From positions 806,001-870,000 of the forward strand of contig NW_020847569.1 in assembly GCF_003704095.1 (NCBI RefSeq): a stretch of DNA of 64,000 nucleotides, read 5' to 3'. The stretch comes from Pocillopora damicornis. Taxonomy: Eukaryota. The position numbers and the translations under genes were made by a program. Positions 1 to 61,700 of the stretch are shown here, piece by piece (positions within the stretch are counted from its first letter, which is position 1; each line of letters begins with the position of its first letter). The notes under the pieces were generated by a model. That model had not been told where the DNA came from and did not search any database. It was given only the letters and a program-made list of their open reading frames with translations.

Positions 1-731
1 CTCTATCAGACGAAGTGATCTACCACGTCTATGTTTTTAAGTTTGGTAAACGTGTAGAAAATCACAGTCGCAGGCAGGAGGGGAATTTGAACAAACTAAT
101 GTCCAAAAGTTTAATGTGCTGAATGTTGTTGGGATGTTGGAACTTAAAATTGATCGACGCGTATAAGTTGAAGTCTATATCGAGGAAAGTGTGATTTAAT
201 TCATCAAGCAATCGCTATTCAATTAAGTTCGTATTTCTGCGCATGGACCAGCTGACTGATGATATCGTTGGTTACGTGACATAATTTCTGGCGGCGAAGC
301 TTCGACAGCGAGCAACAAGCGTACCCCGACTTCACTCTCCTTGCGCGGTTAGTACGTTCGAAGGCCAATTGTGCGACAGCGCACAAGCCTCTTTTGTAAC
401 TGCGCAGGGGGCAGATAAAAAAAGGAAAAAAAAGGTAAAAGCGAAAAATAAAACTCTTCAAGCTTAGAGTAACGGTCGGTGTTTTCCCGCTTGATGAAAT
501 ACAATGTTATAGCGCAGTACACTTATTGTAAGCCTTCAATTAAGCACGTGACCACAAGCTACGGTGCGTCATTAGATTTACACATGAGTGCTTTATTCTG
601 CTCTAAATTTACAAATATGTAAATATATTACTTAACAAATTGTATCGATGACACAACATCTGTTTCATTTCTCTCCGTTAATACATAAATATTTTTAAAG
701 CAATTACAAGAAGAGAGTTGCCGCTAATTAT

Positions 732-13700: not shown

Positions 13701-16700
13701 CTTATGTGTAACTTACTGTCTGAATATTTACTGTCTGCATTTTAACCCAGCACAGTGGCAAGAATTCTTTATCTCTTAATTTCTGGACCAAAAGTTCTGT
13801 ACTCCTTTTCAGGTGCAACATTTTAAGTGATACTTTATAACTACACTATTAAGTTATTTTTCACTTTTTTTTAGCTTTTGAAAGATGAGTTCTGGTCAAT
13901 ACTGAATGCATAGATTCATTTTTTTTTTTTTTAACGTAGTTGAAGATGCAGTTTGCCTAGTTGGTTCACAAACCAATCATTTTTTTTTTCTTGTAATTGG
14001 GTGAATTAAGGATATTGAGAATTCTTTTGGGGCTTTTTCCTCAGGTTACTGAATTGTTTAATCATAGAAGGGCTTTAAGCTGCTTATTAAATATTAATGC
14101 AAAGCTAGAAGCTATCATTTCCGTTCCCCAGTTAAAAGCTTTTACCATAATCTGGCTTAAGGAACAGATGTGTTTTAACTTCTTCATCCTAATGACAATG
14201 ATGTCAAGATGTTTTTATACTTAGACATTTACAAGGGTCAAATTTCTTTCTCTCTCTATTTTTTTTTTAAAGTTTAAGTTGCCTGGTGTAATAGAATGCA
14301 CGTCTTATGGTCTACATTTTTGTTGTAATGACAAATTGCCATATCAATATAATCTGCAATTTTTTAGCTTTTACCAGCCAATTTAGAGTAAGCACAGTTA
14401 AAGCTCTTACCTTGAAAGCACCTCATAAGTGTTTACGATATCTTCCTCCCTGATCCTGTGACTGAATTGGAATGTTAAGTGTTGGCATTATTGTGGTTTT
14501 TAGGGAAGAACAATGTGGTTATTTTTATTTTGAACCAGATGATTGCCTTAGGGCACTTTCTGTGTTTGTTTTCTTGCTTGCTTATACTATTGTTTTGAAG
14601 TCATCCTTTTTATAGAGCCATCTTTTTTTTTTCTCCAGGTGAAAGTGGACTGGGCAAATCAACACTTCTGAACTCACTGTTTTTAACTGATATCTACACA
14701 CCTGCTGCATATCCAAGTGTAGAGGAACGACTCAACAAAACTGTTTCAGTAAGTCTTTTACTTGATGTGCTGTATAAATTTGAAGCCAGAGAAAAATAGC
14801 AAAATATTGAGCACAAAATACTCTCTACTTAGAAGATAAAATATTGGTAATTGGATACTGCAAAGTGGTGTTAAAAATTTTTATTTAATGGCAATTTTAG
14901 TGGGTTCTTTTATATTTGCTCAGATTTTATTTATCTCTGCTTGTGAGCCACATGAGCAAATTGATTGGGAAACATGATTTTGATTTGTTTTCCTCTTGTT
15001 TCTCTCATTTTTTTGATGAATGTACAGTTTAAGCCAAAAAAGAAGGCAAAAATGTCTCGCTCTTTTAGACCCTTTTTGAAGCAGAAACAAAGAATCAGTT
15101 TTCTGCAGTTAAGAAATGAAAGATCAAAGAAACGGGAAGTTTTCCTTGAGTCTCTATTCAGAGAGAAATTTTTTGTTTGTTACTCTTAACCCTTCAACTC
15201 CCAAGAGGGACCAAGACATAATTTTCTCCTTACAATACCAATACTATATCAAGCCGACAAGTGATGAGAAAAGAGGAAATTCTCAATATGGGGATTAGTC
15301 GTGAATCCAATACCAAATTCTCCAAACCATCTTCATAAGAATTGTGTGGCAGACTGTGAGTATAATTTGAATGAGATCTTGAGAGTGCAAGGGTTAAGGA
15401 AAGAATTACTTGAATCAAGTTAAACAGCCTGAAACACAATTAAAGTTAGAGAAAGATGTTTTTCATCTTGTCACAAGTGAGGGACAAGGTAAAAAAAAAA
15501 TTCTGAGTCTCCATGAGGAATTGAACCTCAGACCTTTGGATTTTGTGTTCCGATGCTCTACCACTGAGCCACAGAGACTTTATGATGAGCGAGGTCTATT
15601 ATGAAGTTCATATGACACATGTCAGTAAGCTGGTTTAGTTTTTCAATTAGTAACAGTAACTGTAGAAGGTGGGTCATGGATTTTTTTGTTTCATGTAGAT
15701 AAAACCTTCAACAATTGAGATGAAAGAGGGAGGTGTGCGACTGAGACTAACAGTTGTTGATACTCCAGGATTCGGAGATGCTGTTGACAACACTGACTGG
15801 TAAATTACAATTATAGATATTTCTACACACTTTTTAGCTTCATGGACAGCATATTTTTTATCATTATTATTGAAGGAAAAAAGGAAAAGAAAGGATTCTG
15901 AAGTTTCTAACAAGCTCATAATCTTTCTTTTTTTCTTTTTTTTTTAAGCTGGAAGCCCATTATTGAATACATAGACAACAAATTTGAAGAATATTTAAAT
16001 GCAGAATCAAGAGTGGTCAGATCACCTTTCCCGGATGACAGAGTTCATTGTTGCTTGTACTTTATTGCACCTACAGGGCACTGGTTAGTTCATTTTACAA
16101 ATAGTATGCTTGTTGAACTTTGTTTTGACATTTCTTGATGTGATAGTGACTCAGTGGTGATGAGAATTTGTGGTAAGATTTATTGCTACATGTATTTTCA
16201 TTTTGCAGTCTAAAACCTTTGGATATAGAATTTATGAAAAGACTTCATAACAAGGTGGGCTTGTAACCTTTTGTTGTGCTGATATGCTTCTGCTTTATAC
16301 TTTAATTCATGTAACCTTTAAACTATTACGATTGTTAATTCTCTCCTTTAGCTGCTACACCTTTCCTTGTAATTAGACCTAATTACAATATATTCACCCC
16401 TGATGAAGGCACCAGATAGGAATGTCGAAACGTTGGGTCTATGAATTGTAACTTCTTTGGTTACATTCATTAAATCTGTAAACCAAAGTAGCATCAAACC
16501 ATGTCTAGACCTAATTAGTTCCAAAAATTTGGTATTAGATCAAGATGACAGCTTCTACCTGATAAGTTTGAGTATTCTCATTACCTGTTTGCTTAATCAT
16601 GTATGGGTATTATATGGAGAAGTTACAAGATAATCATTTAACTTTCTACTTATTTTAGGTTAATATTGTACCGGTGATTGCAAAAGCTGACACTTTGACC

Positions 16701-19700
16701 CATGATGAGTGCACCAAGTTCAAAAAACAGGTTTGAAACTTACTTTTTTGCCTCTTTTGTATTACCTTGTATAGAAATTGCATTTTTTTTTAAAGAACTG
16801 CTTCTTTTCACTATCAGATACTTAAGGAAATAGAGGAAAATGACATTGGGATTTACAGATTTCCAGACCTTGGAGGAGATGATGATGATGATGTAGCAGC
16901 TGTTAGTATGAAGGTATCAATAAACTTGTAGAAAATAAAACCTTACATGATGCTGTTCATGTCTATAAAAGTGGAAATACAATACTATGTGATCTGGGAG
17001 ACATATACAGTACTTGCACCTGGATATGCAAGTAACTTGTTTAAGTCCTAACATAGATAACTTTGATTTTGAGCCGGTTATTTACGCGAGTTCTGTCCCA
17101 AACCACCGTTTTATGCAAACAATGGGCCTAAGGCTTTCCCCATAGGAGGGTTGATATAATTAGGTAAAAGTCCTTCCACTGTTGGCTTTCGGCTTTCTTG
17201 ACACTGTGACATAAATAAATGCTCAGATTAAAGGTTCAGCTCAGTTGAGGAGTTTTTTGGACACAGTTTGGTTAAACAACTACTAAACTTTGTTTAAATA
17301 ATCAGACCTTTGTGTTTGTACTCCCTTGTTGAGGAACAATATTATTTTGTTTCTAGGACAGAATACCTTTTGCAGTGGTTGGTAGCAACACAGTCTTAGA
17401 AGTTAATGGCAAGAGAGTAAGAGCCCGAGTGTACCCTTGGGGTGTGGCCGAAGGTATTGCCTGTGATGACATGTTTTTGAAACTTTCTTTGCAAAGTCTC
17501 CAGTTGAACTTTACCGCTCTGACGAAGGGCTAACGCTCGAAACGTCAGCTTTCAAACTCTTTATGGTGGCCAATTTATGATCTCAATTCAGTTGATAATG
17601 CTAAATTACCCTAAATTACCGTCGCAGCACCATAGTTCCTTTAGAAACTTACCCCTTTATTCATTTGAACTTTACAACCCTTTGGTTTCCACTCTGTTGC
17701 CTTTGTAAAGCTATTTTTAACATCTGCTGTCAAAAAGTTAAGCGTTGTACCAGTAAAGTTTGAGACTCTGCCTGCAGTGTGAATGTACTGATGATAGTTT
17801 TAATTACATAATCGTATGTTGAAAGTTCCAACCTGTCTTTGTTGAAACAACTGCATGTTGGAACGTTATCGATAGTCGATGTCGCTGATATGTATATCTT
17901 GCGGGATTATTAATGATTACTTCCTCTTTCTCTCTTTTTTTTTTAAGTTGAAAATGTAGACCACTGCGATTTTGTTGCTTTAAGAAACATGCTGATCAGG
18001 TAAGTATCATGGAACGTAACAAATAAATCCTGATGCCGTAGCAGTGAACGATATCTTAAGCCTGAGTTGTGCAAAACTTAGCAAGCTCAGTTTATTTTAG
18101 CTCACGGTATAAATGTTCGATATAGTGTTATAGCATTGCAGGTAGACCTTCTGATTATCTTTCGTTCTCTTCAGTGTATTTTAATCTGAGATGAAACTCT
18201 GCAATACGTTTATCCCAACAAACGCTTTCAAACAAAAGAAACCAAAGTCGAGATGATTATACTACCTAGATTAGCGCCGATCACCCTTCAAATGAACAGA
18301 TCACAGGGGTTGTATTACAGTTCGAATACTGAAAAATTAGCTTAGAAGCGAACACCAGTAGTTGGCGATTTTCGTGTTTACTTTATTTCGTTGTGCCTTC
18401 ACCTGATGGGGACATTGCAAACTTCTGTAGGCATCACGATCTTATTTACCGGAAAAATTTCAGTGGTTTTGTAAATGAGTTTTATTGCGTGAGTGCGCAT
18501 TAGATAACAACCGATCGCTATGATGATCTCATAACTAACAAGCGTAAATAGAGTGATTGTCTTATCAACAACGTCCGCAAGATGTAAATAAATCTCTTAA
18601 ACTTATTATTTTCTTTTTGAACGAGCCAACTAATTGATTATCTAAGATTTACTTCCGTTTTATTTCCTAAAGCTAAGCCAATCAAATCTACTGAATTGGA
18701 TTATTCAATGATCCAGTTTGTTAATTAATCTTGGATAATTCCATATCCAGGCGTAGATCCATTCTGAGACCATAACCATACGCAGTGACGAAGGGCTCAT
18801 AACGCTCGAAACATCCTTAAAAACTCTTTACGGCGGCCAATTTACGTTATCAACTCATATATAAAACCATGTTATCTTGTAGTACCCACCACCGACTCAG
18901 CGCCTCAGTTTCTTTAGAAACTTTTGCCCTTTATTCACGACCAAATATACTTTCTTTTTCCTTCAGAACGCATATGCAGGATCTCAAGGATGTGACGAAC
19001 GACACTCACTACGAAAATTATCGCTGCGAAAAGCTGGCGGCCATGACCGTTGGCTCACCTACTAATCAGCCAAGTTCTAAGTAAGTAACTCTGTATCACA
19101 TCAGTTAAACAAGAGAAGGATGCATCTCTGCCAGAGAAAGTCAGTGTCATGAATAATTCGGGATTGCTTTTGTTATTCCACCCGGTGATTGGTCTAGAAA
19201 TCTCGCGCGTCATCCTCTGATGCAAAACTGCAACCAATGGGAAATCAGATACAAGCGATCCTCGCAGCTATGAACACCACCAAATGAGTAGTTGAAATAA
19301 GACATGAAGAAAATTCAGGCCCATATGGGATTTGAACCCATGACCTCTGCGATACCGGGGAATGGGGAATCAGTCATTCCCGCGCTAGAGGCTTGCTTCT
19401 GCCTCGTGTTCTCAATGTGGTTGGTTGCTTTGTTCTAAGTGGCCACTGTGATAACTTTCGTTTTGTTTTACCGTGATACTAAATCAAGTAGTACTTTTTG
19501 ACTGGCTTGGGGTTTTGTTCCCATGTCCTAGTGCTGTACAAACAACAAGTTTTCTGGCTAAAAATTAACAGTCTCTGGCTCATGCACTATGAGCTCTAAC
19601 ACTCGAATCGTCAGCTTAAGAAATTCTTAACGGTGGCCAATTTACATTATCAACTCAGTCGACATTAATCAGTATTACCCCCTAATGAGGCAGCACCACA

Positions 19701-22700
19701 TTTTCTTGGAAACTTACCACCTTCATTTATGGGGGAGAAAATATTTTTGCAAAGCTTACGCCGGCTTACGCCGAGATGATGGTCGATCGAAGAGGAATCT
19801 GAATCGTTTTAACGCAGGCTGTTGATACAACAATTAAACGTGAGGTGTCCGTCATGTATGTACGAAGTGTATGAAAAGTCAAAATGATCTTTACACCTGC
19901 GGTTACGACATGAAAGCGTAACAAGATTTTCAATGAGTTGTTTGTAAAGCTACCAGATTGTCCTATAAACAAATCCAGAACAACAAAACAAAGAAACACC
20001 CTAACTAAACAAAAACAACGAAACAGTTTTACTTTGAACGAAAACTGTTTAACAAACCGACTCATTGCTCACTGTTTGGTCGTCTTGAAGCATTTTATTT
20101 CTTTTTTAGTAACATTCATCATTCAACATTTTTTCTTAGCGTGTCTCTCAGTAGAAGTCCTCTGGAGCAACTGGAAGCTGAGAAAGAGGAACGAGAAATG
20201 AAACTGAAGAAAATGGAACAGGAAATGGAGCAAGTGTTCGAAATGAAAGTCAAGGAAAAGAAAAAGAAGCTCAAAGATTCTGAGGCGGAGGTGAGTTGGA
20301 CAGTGAGTGAGCATTGAGGTGAACATGAACAGCTAAGGCTGACATTGATTCTTTAAATCCCAGGGGTGACTTGGACAGAATTTTTACGCATAATGTCAAT
20401 TAAATATGTAGAAGACAAGCGATAATGAACAAAATATCAACTGGGGATTATTATTTGATTCAACACCAATTTCTCAGAGTTATCTTCATGACAAGTGAAC
20501 CATGGTTAGAGTTATCATTAGAGCAATTTTCAGCGGAGTGTTGAAAGCAATCAGGGATAGCTTTGGACTAGCGTCGCCATGAGCTGTGAATGGTATAGAA
20601 ACTTGTGCTTTCCCCTCTATCATTATCGATCAAAGAGCGCTCTCTATTGGTTATCGTAAAACCCGGCTAAACCAAAATAATCACAACAGGCATTCAGTAG
20701 AAAGGAAAATACCTTGAAGAGCCAATGGCAACTCGAAGTTAAAATAACAAACTGGCTAAAGCGCGGGAATACGCGGGCGACCAAGTCGTGATTAGTTTTA
20801 GTTTCGGTTCTGATTGTTTGAGAAAGTTGCCCGAATTTTCTTGACCAATCACAAAGCGAAGCACAGTACCACCCCTGCTATGTTGGATTACTTTGGACAC
20901 TGTTTTAAACTTGTTCTAAGACCAATGGCAACTTGAACACCAGAGATTTCCAGTTCTTCGGGCAGTTTACATTTTTTTACTCTGAACTCTTTTTGGTCTC
21001 ATGCGACACTTAGCTTCGTTGTAATCGCTCTTTTGTACTTAGAAAACAATTCAGTGCGAACATTTTTTTAACAGCTTGGCAAGAAAAACGAACAGATGTG
21101 GAAACAGCTCGACCAGCAGAACAAGGAGCTAGAGGAAAAACGAAAACAGTTCGAGAGAGAGAAGGGACACTACGAGGAAGAACTGAAAAGTAATGGCCTG
21201 AAGGGTCTGGAACGGTCTGACTCCTCCAGCAAATCACTCAAGTAGGTGTATTCCTTTACAAACACACGCGGCCTTGGTTTGTAATAGAACAAGAGGTGTC
21301 CTAAATACCCAGTTTACAACGGACATTGTTAAGAAAATTGCTGTCGGAAGTAGTTTGTTTGTTTGTTTTTTCGGAATTTTTTGGGAGTGATTTGTAGTAA
21401 AGTGACCCTTCTTCTAAAAGGCGGACTGAAAGTGAAATTTTTTCGGTATTAAACAACTGCACACAGGAAGTGTAGACCAGTTTCTAGAAAAACATTCTTG
21501 CAAGTTTCATTGCCTTCGTGATTTTTCAGGCAGAAAATTTCCTTCTATTCTGGACCTTCAGTCCAACAATCGTCCATAAATATCGATATAATTGGAGTTT
21601 CAAACCAGTTGCATTGATTTGAAATATTTCCTCGTGCTATTTGAACCATGCGAGAGGGTGGATGGGAATTGTAGATAAAATATTTAGGTCAATTTGTCAA
21701 CAATTCTTTCGCCAAATAACCTTTATGCGTGATTACGTTTTACCCTAAGCCTTTTTTGCTCCACATCCCTCTTTTGCCTGTCATCTTGTTCTTGGTTATA
21801 CGTGGGTATTCTTTGGATATCATTGCTTTTGCAATACGTTCCGCACCAAGAAAGCGAGGCTTAGGTACACGTTACGTAACTTTGCATGAGGCTATGTGGG
21901 TCTTTCGCTCGTCTGTCTGTAAGGTTAGATGAGATTTTGTAGGATCTGATTAATAGTGCTGAAAGAAACTGTGGTTTGCTCATGTTTTTTGTTTGGAGTA
22001 TGTGTCGCTTGTTTTTTGTCTGTATATGCTTATTTAGCAGCTGCAAGTAATGAAGTTGGCATTAACGTTTGCGTTGGCTCACCCAATCCTCTCCTAACTT
22101 ATCAATTGGTTCTTGTAAAAGCGATTTCGCTCCCGCTTAGTTATGCTGTGTTGGCCATTGTTAAAGTAAAAAGCCTTTCTTGAAGTCAGTTTTCATTTTT
22201 GTGTGTTCTCAGACATCTTATGTTAGCCTGGTGGAACTCTTGGAGCGCTTTTCGATGAAGTGCAAACTCGTAATCACATTTGCTTTGAATCCTAATTGGT
22301 CAAAGACGTTCGAGTTACCTTCTCAATTGACCAGATTGTATTGGTTCTTCTTTGAGATCGGTTTAGAAAACTCGTGCTAGTCTCTGAACCAATCACATGC
22401 AAAACTAGAACCAATCACAACTCGGAATTAGTTTCACGCGCTAGAAGTAGTTTTTGACTTTTAAGCCTGAGTTCCCATTGGCCCCTTTTGAAATTTCACT
22501 TTGTTGTCTTTGGCTCCGCTGCTATCGCCTAACAACACTTCGAAATGCGCTTTAAATCGGTACACCCTAAGGAATTTCCTATTCCTTTTTTGTCTACAAT
22601 GTTTGCTGTAAAGCAGTCTCAGATAATTTTTAGCGCTTTAGTCTGTGCAGTTCCACCTTTTTGCCGGTAAGTGCTGTCGTGCTAACGCTTTGTAGTGTCT

Positions 22701-52729: not shown

Positions 52730-55700
52730 ATGGATAGATTTTTGGTATTTCTTATAGTGCATGATGATTCCTCAGCAGATCATGAGGGTGAGATATATTT
52801 AGATTTCATTCACTGGAAACGAGCTAATATGCCAAATTTTATGCCCCAATATATCGGAAATCGTGCTCATGTAATAATATGCGATCTTCTGAGCTTTTGC
52901 CAGAGCTAATTATCTACCCATCTACATATAAGCTTTTGTTGTTCACAGCTGTGCATTTATCTCTAGTTATAACAGACTAGTAACATCGAAGGTAAGGTCA
53001 GATTCCTTTAAGAAGAATGAAAAACCCACTGAAACTGGCCTCACTCCTAAAATGTGGTATCATATGGTTCCGTCAGTAGAGGTGTCTAATTAGTGTCTGG
53101 GAAACATACCTTTAATCTTAGAGGCCACAATGTTTTTAGCCTTCCTTTCTGGAATGAAATCAACCACAATTAACTTATGAAGATGAATTGATCGCTTGTA
53201 ATTGTTCTTCATCAACCTGTCTGTCATCAGTTGTTAGTGGACTAGATGATGTGATAATCTGCAGCTATCTTTCATGAGATATCAGTAAAATACGTAATCA
53301 TATCTTTCACAATACATGGGCTGACTATTGGTTACCTTCTGGTTGACTGTCACCAGATCTGTCTGCCATCTTCCAGCTACTAATTGTTTTATAAGTTATT
53401 TGATGGGCAAAACATCAGTCCATAAATTGACCAGGGTAATTTAGTAATATCAACTGAGTTGTTAACGTAAATTTCTCTACTGTAGAGAGTTTTAAAGGTG
53501 AAATTTCAAGTGTTAGCCCTTCATCAGAGAAAACTCTTTATAGTGGCCAATTTACATCATCAACTCAGTTGATAGTACTAAGTTACCTTGTTATACACTT
53601 CTAAAGATGCAGCACCACAGTTTCTTTGGAAACTTACCCCTTTCATTCATTGACAAGTCATGCCTGAAGGCTACCTATGATGTACGTAATACCCTCATTG
53701 TCTTATTTCTGCATGAATGCAAAAGAACTCCATAAAAGGTTTCCCAAGGTTTCCCCAGTTCATACACAACCTTGAAGAAATAATGATGTTGTACCTCTCA
53801 TTCTTTTGTATTAGCATGTGCCCGTTGTAATGAGGATGTGGCCCCTGCTGTTCAGGGTGTGGTCGAAGATCTTATTGTGGTTTGTGATAAGAATAAAAAA
53901 TCTCTGAAAGATATTGAAAGTAACCAGTGGACATTGATTGGTGAGTGTTATTAATGATATGGAAAAAGATTATATGATAATATGATGATTGTGTGTTGTA
54001 AAACTAAAACAAAAACAATCACAGCAACTAATGAGAGGAGAGAAAAATGTTGTAGGGTGCTGATGAGAATGTGAAATAAAAAAAAGCAAACCACCTGAAG
54101 CCTGAAAAAGGCTGAAGGCTGAGTCAGGATTGGTTAAGAGTTTTACTTTTGATTGTTTGAGAGACTAGCAAGAATTTTATATGTGGATCATATGCATAGA
54201 ATATACTGAAGCAAAACTAATGCAATTCTTCATTTTTTTTTCTTATTCTAATTTAAAAATTTCTCAAGGCATGACAATTACCTGTGAGTTAATTTTAGGA
54301 ATTTTAATGAATGAGGCCATGATGACAGCTGGAGTCTCTCTCTTTACTTTAGATCCTCTTTTAGCTCTCAAGAACTTCAACCCCACAGTTCATTTCAGCA
54401 TCATTGAGGACAGGCCATTCATAGACCAAATGGAGGTTAAGTTGATGAAAAAGTAGCATACAGACTGAAATTGCAATTGTGATCTTAAGGGTTTCGGGAA
54501 ACCTTTGACATAAGGCCCAGCATTCATTTTTAAAGTGACCAGCATGGTTGGTTTGTTCTGATTAAAGGCAAGCACCCTTAGTTTAATCCAGTAACTCTTT
54601 ACATCCATCCTATCCTACATGCTGTTCTCTATACATTTCTTAAATTACTGACAGGTAGAATTTTTTTAACACTGAAGAGTTTCTTTGGTTGGTTTGTATG
54701 AAATTGTAAGATGATATGCTTAATCAGATATATTTCTAATCTGATGTATGTGATCTTATTGTATGGTTTTCAATGGTAGATCTGATTTATGGCTGATCTG
54801 ATATGGCTTACCTTATTGTCTATTTATTTTAGACTTATTCAAAGTGGCATGGAGAGGAAAATCTTAAGGAAGTTTTGCTGTGGCTTGGAAAGTCTGATAT
54901 GCTCAAAATTTCAGCCATAATTAGGTATCTGCTGGAGATTTTAACTTTAATTGTGCTGTATTTTCTTTGACCTTGTGACCTTGTGACCTTTATATATGGT
55001 CTAGTCTAAGAAAGGACTTACCCTATGTCTGTGGTTTGTATATTTTGTAAAACCTAACTTTCTCTGCCCTCATTCATTATCATTGTTGGATATAGCTTTG
55101 TTACAATTGTAGTTACTGATGCTTTTTTTTTTTAAAGGAGTTCTCTAGATAAGGATGTTGAAATTTCAGAACGACTTCACAGTCTTGCTGATGGCTTACC
55201 ACAAGGTACATTGACTGTTTTGGCTAGGAATAGATATGAGTTACACAAAGGCAACAAAGGAATGATAGAGTCAGTCATTCAGACAGAGAGACAGACAGAG
55301 AGGCAGACAGACAGACAGACAGACTGATATACAGGCACTGATAGACAGGTAGATAGACAGAGAGATAGACAGTGAGCAAAATTAAAGAATGAATGGGACA
55401 AGAGAACAAGAAGAACATTGGTTGTGTTGTGAATAAAAAGCTAAATTATGTGGAAAAGTGGTGCTAATTTTTTAGTTAACATGATTGATGTGTACTCAGT
55501 AGACACAAAAGGACTCGTGGGGTTTTACACTGTACAACAGTGTTGTTTTTTAAATGGTTTCTTTTGTGGTTTTTTTTAGCAGGGGTCCCTGTTGATGTCT
55601 TCTGGTTTATTTGTGGGAGAGATGCCCTCCCTGTCAGGTAATGTATATTGTCTACTATAACTACATTTGTGTACTACTGCAACTCTTATTAATGATGTGA

Positions 55701-58700: not shown

Positions 58701-61700
58701 GTCTGAAACCACTGCTTTTTCTGTATTAGCTTCAGTTACCAACAGACTGGATGGTAATACTGGAGATGAAGATCTGACAGAGTCTTGCAGGCGGTTGTGT
58801 CTCGTATGCGGTTCTGCTGAAAAAGAATTGAGCTTATATGTTCTGAGAAGACCAGAAGATCTAAATGGCTGGATCCATAAGGAGCTGTCCTCAATCCAAT
58901 CTTCATTCCTCATCTCTAATGATCAAAAGGGTAAGATATGTGGAAACATGTCCTTCACGTACCTAGAATAATTTGAAGTAACATTTGTTCTTTGTTTCTT
59001 GGTTTTTGTGGCTTAACTGTTGTTGGAAACATCGCAAAACAGAATCAACGTGTTTTGCCTCTCTTTCATTTTGAGTAGCTTAGGAACCATATTGTGTTCT
59101 TTTTTTTGTGCCGTGCAGAACCAAATTCAGAATATTATTTTTGAAACAGAGGAAATAAACCGAGAAGGATCTAGGATGGTTCACCTGAGTGTTGATGGAC
59201 CCTGAGTGTTGGTCTGGTCTAAGGATTGAACTCTCGGCTTTCCGCACGGTAGTCCTGTGCTCTTAGAACGAGCCAACGTACTAACTTGCTCCACTCGCGT
59301 TTTCTTTTACTTCCAATTAATTAGAATCAGAGTGAATACTAATTTAAGTGGCTTTTGTTGTATCAATTTCATCTTTTTTGTAGTTGGCGGGCCCTTAAAA
59401 TTTCCAGAACTGTCAGAGAGTTTCATTGAAACGGAACAAAACTTGACTGAAGTTCTCTTGCAAGAGCTGCAAAAGGAGTTGCGTAAGTGTCTGAAGGGTC
59501 AGGCCTCGCAAAGCAGAATAGAGCGAAGAATGTGCTGCCTCAAATCTTCTCTATGAGAGCGCCTAAAAGTTAGAGCTTACTCTCACTTTAGCCTTTATAA
59601 AAAGGGTCACGTAGGACTGTGATAAATTGAAGTCCTTTATCTCCGACGGTCTTTTTAGGAAGCTATCATCAAGTAATCCGCTGATAAGATCATCCCTCGA
59701 CCAGTGAGTGGAAGTTTGTGTTTCAGGTTTAAAGTGATCGCAAACTTCCTTGATTTGTAATTTTCGTTATGTCGGTATATATACGTATAATAACATTTAT
59801 TCTTTTTTTTTTGGCAGAAAATTCAGATGATCTGTTTTCGACTCACTCAGGATGTAACATCGTTGATAAAACAACTTCGACTAAGCAGCAGTTCTTAAAG
59901 GAGAAAAGGTAACCGATGTATTAGTGTAGATAACATTATGTTTAAAAGGTGACTGTACGATGCGATACTCTCACCTGCGCAGCTGAGATATTCGAGTCTC
60001 GTCTTGTCTTCCTACACTGGCTACACATGCAGCTGTAATTTTGAAGCTGTCATGCCACATTCCTTCATAAAGGGCTTCGTGTAGTCCTTTTCCAAACAAG
60101 TTGCCTTAAAACTCTAGTTCTGTCTTATCTCTGTTTGACAGTTTTCCTTAACTGGATTCCAATTCGAAATGCTAATTTGAGCCTAAAGTCTATCTAAAGT
60201 ATTTGGATTTGCATCCTTTGCTCCTCAATTTATGTGATACATGATCACTGCAAAGCAAGAAGAAGTAAGCCAGAATTTATTTCGACCAGTTATCTAGTTA
60301 GGTCAACAAGGTTATTATGTTGTGGTATTGCAGACTGGGTTGGAAAGAACATGAACTGGAACCTGTCGATAGAAATGTTTTGCCTCCAGACGTCTCAGGT
60401 GAAAAGTGACTTCATTTGTTTCCGTCGCTCAAAATGTGGTGTTTAGTTCTGACAAGAGAGGATGAAGCTATGAGACTGAACTCCTCGCGTAAGCGTTATT
60501 CGCATGGTTACCCTCACAAGTTATTTTAGACCAATGTTTTTTTTGCGAGTTTCGTGAAGGTTTCTGTCTGTGGAGAATGAACGCAAAGACGCCACATGTG
60601 ATATCCGCGTAAGCGGGATTTATAACAAGGGATTGGGGACTAAAAGGACTAAATTCTTATTGGGTCTCCTAAAAAAGAGGTAATCTGCACTGAATTAAAC
60701 AATATTCCTTGAGGAGTAAGGTCTTTTATGGAGGATTTAGTCTTAGCTTGATCGTTTCTCGGTTATTGCTTGAGCGTGCACTTTCCAAGGGCATAGCTAG
60801 CATTTTTCAAACGACGGGAGGGACCACACTATGTAACACTCAGACTACTCATACCTTACTGTCATGTCAACATCCACCCTGTGTTTCACTAAACCAGCTT
60901 AAAGCTTTGTTTGCTGATTTGTATGAATCTGAATGTTTTGTTTTATTCTTGTCGTGAGAAATTGGCTTGCTCTCAATAGTTGTCATCATATTTTTGTGTC
61001 ACTTTCGTAGAATTATCGTTGTCTCCAAGCAAATGGCCTGAGAGAGCTTGGCTTGTCAAAAATGATCCGAATGCAAGGTAACTTTAATGAAAATTATATC
61101 ATACAATGTGCATCTCACTGGCAACTCATCCTTGCCGTTCTTACCGCTCTTACCGATTATGGACTTTTTTTTTTAATTTAAAGATGTATATGGTGTCTGG
61201 AGCGTATTTCTCTTTCAACAGCTTTTCGCAATAATTTTGATGTACCCTCGTCAAAAGACTTTATCCTATGTTTGTGTCATTGTATAGGGTAAACGATTCC
61301 GTCGCGGACGAGTCAACTAAAAATTATCCGTTGTTAGCATCAGGTAGGTCATTATTGTGGCCTTGTCTCTCTTACCTTTAACTAAAATTGTGTGAGCGCG
61401 ATCACCGTAGAGTCTCTGTGGCTCAGTGGTAGAGAATCGGAGTGCGGAATCCGAAGGTCTGAGGTTCGATTCCTCATGGAGATTGTTTTCTTTGTCCCAC
61501 GCTCGTGAAAAGACGAAAAACATCTTTCTCTATCTATAAGAGCTTTTAAGAATATCAGGGAACAATAATAACTTTAATTTGAACGTAATGCTAAGAAAAG
61601 TTGCAAGATTAATCAAAAATCATTTCAATCGTTAGACTGTTTAAAGCTGCTTTCACCCGATTGCATGAAGAAGTGCGTGCAAACGATATATTTCACTTTT

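Follow-up and report, generated by a model that had tools for sequence, protein, structure and literature searches.

A solo hammerhead-bearing insert in a septin intron, identified by sequence as the terminal repeat of a Penelope-like element

A short insert lies between direct repeats in an intron of a septin gene and opens with the core of a hammerhead ribozyme. It was found in a window of 64,000 nucleotides, which is the whole stretch of DNA analysed here. The question raised by this locus is whether such a unit is a mobile family of its own, or a piece of a larger element whose ends record how it was copied. By itself the insert is ordinary. The ends of its sister copies, however, are regular enough to make a poorly understood copying step testable, and the family can be regarded as a record, left in nature, of a cycle of transposition described in the literature as undefined.

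The insert, its host gene and its hammerhead

The sequence TTGAACTTTAC is present on the forward strand at 17504-17514 and again at 17665-17675. It forms an exact 11-bp target-site duplication (TSD) around the 150 nt at 17515-17664, as the initial annotation had stated. When one mismatch is allowed, the repeat grows to 14 nt (17501-17514 and 17662-17675), and the mode for the family is 13-15 nt. The 150 nt between the TSDs coincide with the boundaries of the family: of the 40 best matches in the genome, most cover the query from position 12 to about 161. The insert is a solo arm of the terminal repeat (pLTR) and reads on the forward strand from the predicted transcription start to the long, or tail, end. 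It lacks the first 2-3 nt after the predicted start and belongs to an older subfamily, its best relatives being 83-86% identical. At the short-end site (site B, 17601-17620), a 10-bp tandem duplication stands in place of about 18 nt of family sequence, a change private to this copy. The tail between the two family end sites then runs up to site A (17621-17667), and the final TTG is common to the element end and the TSD (microhomology). One unrelated insertion on the reverse strand (L339, 1480-1580) has the same 10-bp duplication at site B without the deletion, and also jumps from the hammerhead to site B; this suggests that site B is a spot of slippage or re-priming.

The host is a multi-exon septin gene on the forward strand at about 15700-20200, three exons of which match PF00735. 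The intron concerned (17454-17947) is bounded by GT..AG as read off the sequence, and its donor precedes the insert, which is in sense orientation, by 50 nt. Introns of this gene hold three copies of the hammerhead pLTR family, all sense; the other two are decayed older solo copies on the forward strand with damaged cores, one in the next septin intron (18786-18937) and one at 19596-19730. An older head-to-head pair of the same family occupies 53433-53651, with an inverted short arm (53433-53529) and a forward long arm (53531-53651). The intron with the insert also contains an imperfect 22-bp inverted repeat (17822-17867), which is unrelated to it. No tRNA-like match was found at the insert locus. 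Elsewhere in the window, a related pair of tRNA-like sequences, each with an anticodon loop of 8 nt and one of them intronic, was observed at 15505-15578 (reverse strand) and 61411-61485 (forward strand); these are probably the heads of a tRNA-derived SINE.

The minimal type I hammerhead spans 17516-17549 on the forward strand and was located with a descriptor taken from PMC4209133. It consists of stem I (17516-17518 with 17547-17549, 3 bp), the first core box (17519-17525), a bulged A (17526), stem II (17527-17538, 4 bp) and GAAA (17539-17542); stem III is loopless, with a palindromic ACGU. The core reads CUGACGA-A-GGGC-UAAC-GCUC-GAAA-C-GUC, and C17 is 17546, after which cleavage is predicted, in agreement with the initial annotation. 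The core boxes, the G10.1-C11.1 pair, the palindromic 15.2/16.2 pair and the closure of stem I were all present. The hammerhead core noticed at first was thus confirmed: its 31-nt sequence has 538 exact occurrences in the host genome (234 Mb) and the reversed control has none. The strict minimal-hammerhead descriptor gave two matches in the window and none in 60 Markov-resampled windows, and Rfam gave no hammerhead match at the insert, either at the gathering threshold or even at E 10.

Minimal hammerheads of metazoan Penelope-like elements (PLEs) mostly occur singly and dispersed and are considered to derive from truncated PLEs, and the loopless palindromic stem III is their minimal form, expected to need a dimer (PMC4209133). 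The present motif resembles those described there in the missing loop III, the palindromic 15.2/16.2, the extra nucleotide before G10.1 and G10.1-C11.1, whereas its stems II and I are shorter than those of the Schistosoma motifs (PMC4209133). Since stem III has no loop, the hammerhead would need a dimer for cleavage and, as modelled, would act only in that form. The monomer reaches its energy minimum as a hairpin other than the hammerhead (-12.3 kcal/mol, against -7.0 kcal/mol for the hammerhead), and an explicit double-hammerhead fold reached -12.3 kcal/mol vs -26.7 kcal/mol for two separate hairpins. No intact dimer partner of the same family was found in the host pre-mRNA within the 64-kb window. 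A second minimal hammerhead, of another family, with stem I ACCC/GGGU and a GUU site, lies in sense orientation in a different intron of this septin gene (16396-16442, forward strand), and has a relative among the fetched loci. A heterodimer of the two was rejected by inspection, the stem I strands being unpaired. In other hammerhead families of the fetched loci the pattern is retained while the stems differ; one of these families has A-U at 15.2/16.2. Column variability in the present family was 0.055 for the hammerhead, 0.093 for the mid-pLTR and 0.06 for the tail; the hammerhead is therefore only modestly less variable than the mid-pLTR and is near the tail, which argues weakly for selection.

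The parent element

With the insert as query, 2293 first-look candidates were obtained in the host genome, and in one copy the C-terminus of a GIY-YIG domain was found 95 nt upstream of the repeat. This GIY-YIG fragment, used as a query in turn, gave 150 scored matches out of 842 candidates; a Pfam search with the 85-aa fragment returned no families. On walking upstream, at locus L036, RVT_1 passed the cut-off (30.6 vs 29.6) and GIY-YIG stayed just under it (21.4 vs 22.6). A 72%-identical relative of 806 aa (P0012) carries both domains in one protein, with GIY-YIG above the cut-off, and relatives of 800-900 aa are present in public assemblies. Translations of L036 and L041 contain the linker CX4CX2C upstream of GIY-YIG, as CARSRCKTC. 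A CX2-5CxxC linker in this place is characteristic of Neptune/Nematis and absent in Penelope/Poseidon, according to the classification in PMC8557442; its presence therefore assigns the parent to the Neptune/Nematis type rather than to Penelope/Poseidon. On sequence grounds, the insert is thus identified as the terminal repeat of an RT/GIY-YIG PLE of the Neptune/Nematis type from the same genome. Two further proposals of the initial annotation, a hammerhead of the PLE pLTR type and target-primed insertion by a Penelope-type reverse transcriptase, were supported; the sequence is the parent's own pLTR. The search that it had suggested for a full-length RT/GIY-YIG element succeeded in part: a parent with this pLTR was found, but neither an intact ORF nor an intact full-length unit was present in the host genome, whose assembly is fragmented.

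The pLTR follows the stop codon in dozens of copies, and it precedes the ATG as judged from two overlapping loci (L331 and L329, see below). The family has the composition of an EN+ PLE: RT followed by a C-terminal GIY-YIG, a hammerhead-bearing pLTR on both sides, an inverted 5' copy and TSDs of variable length. For EN+ PLEs of the Neptune/Nematis type, RT, a C-terminal GIY-YIG with internal cysteines, the CX4CX2C linker and a hammerhead pLTR have been described, and EN+ PLEs are said to be often 5'-truncated and to carry an inverted 5' copy and a tail, the latter frequently at only one end (PMC8557442). All of these features were also seen here. The present family differs from the elements as described there in its longer tail (about 55 nt vs 30-40 nt) and in consisting mostly of pLTR-only stubs with one fixed start (PMC8557442). 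The pLTR hammerhead, the inverted 5' copy, the tail and the solo motifs are already published, and for annotation the family should be entered as PLE pLTRs and not as SINEs, MITEs or retrozymes.

Element sequence is present in contigs from RNA runs, which carry no strand, start, splicing or level. The ORF region was at first suspected to have a sharp 5' end, but this was rejected, as the loose ends in all four RNA-run sets extend upstream. In four loci (L329, L331, L038 and L053), internal jumps over most of the ORF or over the hammerhead were observed, and these are consistent with template switching.

Ends of copies, head-to-head pairs and the copying step

The ends were surveyed in the first 100 of the 538 listed core matches, which collapse to 88 insertions, and arm positions were numbered with the C at 17515 as 0. 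The 5' starts of these 100 core arms are sharply placed: 84 lie at -7..+5 (59 of them at -3..-1), 11 beyond -40 and 5 elsewhere. In a larger arm set, 80 of 190 start at -3..-1, with a minor peak at +5 (14/190), and the same start point was seen in 90 of 107 uncut arms from 121 metagenome loci. In copies that extend further upstream, a TATAAA begins at -34, which places its first T 31 nt ahead of the A at -3, and an initiator-like YYANW follows; the spacing is fixed, metagenome loci included. A distance of about 31 nt from TATA to start is canonical, and YYANW is the initiator motif. The boundary could also reflect a stall of the reverse transcriptase at the hammerhead hairpin instead of an RNA 5' end, as a stable hairpin is predicted to begin at +4, next to the minor peak. 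This is unlikely, however: the main peak lies outside the hairpin and at the conserved distance from the TATA box, 47 ORF-bearing arms run through the boundary, and the starts at +5 fit junction microhomology. Nor do the ends coincide with ribozyme cleavage. The cleavage site lies about 35 nt downstream of the family's 5' ends, and no peak of arm starts was found there; the 3 of 190 arms starting at +28 are explainable by hairpin microhomology. It was therefore concluded that cleavage does not define the element.

The 3' ends are bimodal, with clusters at +93..105 (short, site B) and +144..156 (long, site A), the two sites being 55 nt apart; ORF-bearing arms use both (24 long, 23 short). TSDs of at least 10 nt, with up to one mismatch, flank 53 of the 88 insertions vs 1.2% of 400 shuffled flank pairs. 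They were present in 40 of 49 pairs and in only 13 of 39 solo arms, and solo arms may therefore form by more than one route. Exact TSDs were found in 49 of the 60 pairs and measure 9-16 nt with a median of 14, in line with the variable length that was expected, and TSD composition is 71.5% AT. A MITE or another DNA transposon was rejected, as the TSD length is not fixed and the arms are unequal and variable. The statement of the initial annotation that terminal inverted repeats are lacking holds for the window copy, in which none was found, but not for the family, since 49 of the 88 insertions carry an inverted second arm.

The composition of these pairs is regular. The 49 census pairs, an unbiased set, comprise 42 long+short, 6 long+other and 1 short+other, with no long+long and no short+short. 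In a set of 323 distinct arms of the same genome, collected with mixed queries, all 60 pairs in which both arms reach +85 are long+short. Among 31 metagenome pairs, which are diverged and were scored in looser bins, 23 are long+short, 1 is long+long, 1 is short+short and 6 are unclassified. At a biallelic site (97 C : 95 T), the arms agree in 29 of 30 young pairs, defined as having both arms at least 94% identical to the reference, and arms of young pairs also share private variants; such agreement could also stem from a single active source locus, from gene conversion between arms or from assembly collapse. Microhomology with the target averages 2.05 nt at the short ends (19 of 49 scorable) vs 0.64 in the null, and 1.76 nt at the long ends (37 of 49 scorable) vs 0.72. 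Many pair junctions hold short fillers, which look like templated end-joining inserts, and the junctions vary from copy to copy. The junctions of L124/L125, L158 and L153 contain several tandem stutters of the first 19-24 nt or so of the element, as if the enzyme had re-primed repeatedly at the RNA 5' end.

Head-to-head palindromes with identical arms would also be accounted for by fold-back copying through self-priming, perhaps from an antisense template as proposed in PMC3846280, the endonuclease cutting the tail; 44 of the 60 pairs are indeed nested or symmetric. A fold-back copy must, however, lie inside its template. In 16 of the 60 pairs the 5' end of the short-ended arm lies beyond that of the tailed arm by more than 8 nt (in four by more than 400 nt), and in 11 of the 60 the tailed arm reaches further 5'; in the former 16 pairs neither arm lies within the other, so two primings are needed, and the self-priming model described for Adineta (PMC3846280) misfits these arms. 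In addition, either arm may be the longer (24 vs 31), and target microhomology is found at both outer ends. Fold-back copying is therefore about as improbable as the stall discussed above, and the long+short pairing, the shared variants and the non-nested arms together favour double priming on one sense RNA over self-priming.

The probable origin of the insert is as follows: it is, with good though not full confidence, a solo PLE pLTR and likely a dead-end product, made when cDNA primed at the tail site about 155 nt into the element's own RNA ran to the RNA 5' end at the predicted TATA-driven start. Transcription would start 31 nt past the TATA box in the 3' part of the upstream unit. A protein dimer would nick both target strands about 14 nt apart, and both nicks would act as primers on the same RNA with 1-3 nt of microhomology, site A (+150 to +160) being used by one nick and site B (+93 to +105) by the other. 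Priming at the first pLTR of the transcript would give cDNAs of 100 or 155 nt that end at the RNA 5' end; two of these, joined head to head by end joining, would form the long+short palindrome, and the loss of one would leave a solo arm such as 17515-17664. ORF-bearing copies would arise only when priming takes place at the second, read-through pLTR, and the hammerhead would not be used for making the template.

The initial annotation had instead proposed an independent SINE-like family, in which the 150-160 bp unit, defined by its ribozyme, is non-autonomous and propagates itself by mobilisation in trans. Mini copies do outnumber ORF-bearing ones (84 vs 11 of the 100 core arms), their ends are sharp and TSDs are present; they also predominate in one young subgroup (39 mini vs 5 ORF-linked), and truncated copies that retain the TATA box could serve as sources in trans. 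Against this, mini and ORF-linked copies occur together in every subfamily defined by diagnostic columns, in a sample enriched for ORF-linked arms by the queries; the older subfamily of the window copy comprises 19 mini, 6 ORF-linked and 1 TATA-only arm. The minis lack the TATA box, which is found only in parent or upstream-extended copies, no sibling copy was found for the duplication-deletion at site B of the window copy, pair junctions differ between copies, and the ends do not match the cleavage site. The SINE-like family is thus slightly more doubtful still than fold-back copying, and this part of the initial annotation was not upheld. If the two direct pLTRs of a full-length insertion recombined, a single pLTR flanked by intact TSDs would remain, as at 17515-17664, and PMC3846280 attributes solo pLTRs to recombination or deletion. 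Such recombination is nevertheless a very improbable source of the solo copies, as the required pLTR-to-5'UTR junction was found once in the genome vs 538 exact cores, many minis are very young, and in a pair it would have to have taken place in both arms.

The predicted intron and related systems

The sequence that follows the tail comes from few copies. In L331, the long end continues into a branch-point-like CACTAAC, a pyrimidine tract and a predicted CAG acceptor. L329 overlaps L331 by 36 nt and runs a further 17 nt to an ATG, and the peptide that begins there lines up with residue 1 in a relative of 904 aa; a metagenome contig (L236) repeats part of this continuation. The link from pLTR to 5'UTR is thus seen in one genomic copy and one partial metagenome copy, and a further match (L333) was rejected as due to chance. 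From the overlap of L331 and L329, the order of the unit was deduced as start, hammerhead, site B, site A, predicted acceptor, ATG, RT, GIY-YIG, TATA and next start. As the pLTR runs into the predicted acceptor before the ATG, the priming sites may lie in a 5'-UTR intron. The donor of this intron may, as a guess from the sequence, be the GT within the hammerhead's GUC. When the genome was searched for a spliced copy with the guessed junction, no exact match and 4 with one mismatch (control 2) were obtained, none in an element context.

A more tentative proposal, which we hold to be possible and rather less likely than not to be right in full, is that one protein dimer uses one unspliced RNA and primes exactly once at each of two sites, both in the 5'-UTR intron, and that the donor may overlap the GUC. 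If true, splicing would switch the RNA between message (spliced, translatable, its front not copyable) and template (unspliced), which would explain both why Penelope-like elements keep introns and why genomes are full of start-site stubs. A predicted intron around the priming sites would be a simple and testable reason for intron retention. In the literature searched, no report was found of priming sites located in an intron or of counts of long/short pairing.

The nearest biochemical parallel is PAc, a Poseidon element of Anolis, which in vitro uses two internal start sites bounding the tail and extends both strands, the hammerhead being dispensable (PMC11167929). The present family is similar in its two adjacent internal sites bounding the tail, in the use of both target strands and in the AT-rich target, and the pair counts tie that two-site result in vitro to genomic palindromes. 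The start sites of PAc lie 111-118 nt into the ORF (PMC11167929), whereas those proposed here lie upstream of the ATG and before the predicted splice acceptor. Unlike PAc as reported there, each insertion here uses each site once, with 1-3 nt of microhomology, and this microhomology sits uneasily with the non-homologous initiation observed for PAc in vitro (PMC11167929).

Adineta Pen2a and the Penelope of D. virilis likewise have an inverted pLTR and a TSD of 9-10 bp around the whole unit (PMC3846280, PMC2377424). TATA/Inr-like motifs in the pLTR were reported for Adineta, as here (PMC3846280), and the intron in the 5' UTR of D. virilis Penelope near its start site resembles the intron predicted here, while its promoter is described as internal and TATA-less, unlike that of the present family (PMC2377424). 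Non-LTR retrozymes are also non-coding, carry a type I hammerhead and are derived from PLEs (bioRxiv 10.64898/2026.07.22.740005). They are described there as head-to-tail tandems, whereas the family here is solo or head-to-head: among the 88 sampled insertions, no head-to-tail tandem units were found, apart from one deleted tandem (L331) and short stutters at junctions. Unlike retrozymes as described in that preprint, the ends here are at the predicted start and at two internal sites and not at the cleavage site (bioRxiv 10.64898/2026.07.22.740005).

It was also observed that the 11-mer AGAAACTTACC is present twice, once in the tail before site A and once a few codons into the ORF (in L329 and in the loose ends of RNA-run contigs), and that its reverse complement resembles a splice donor.
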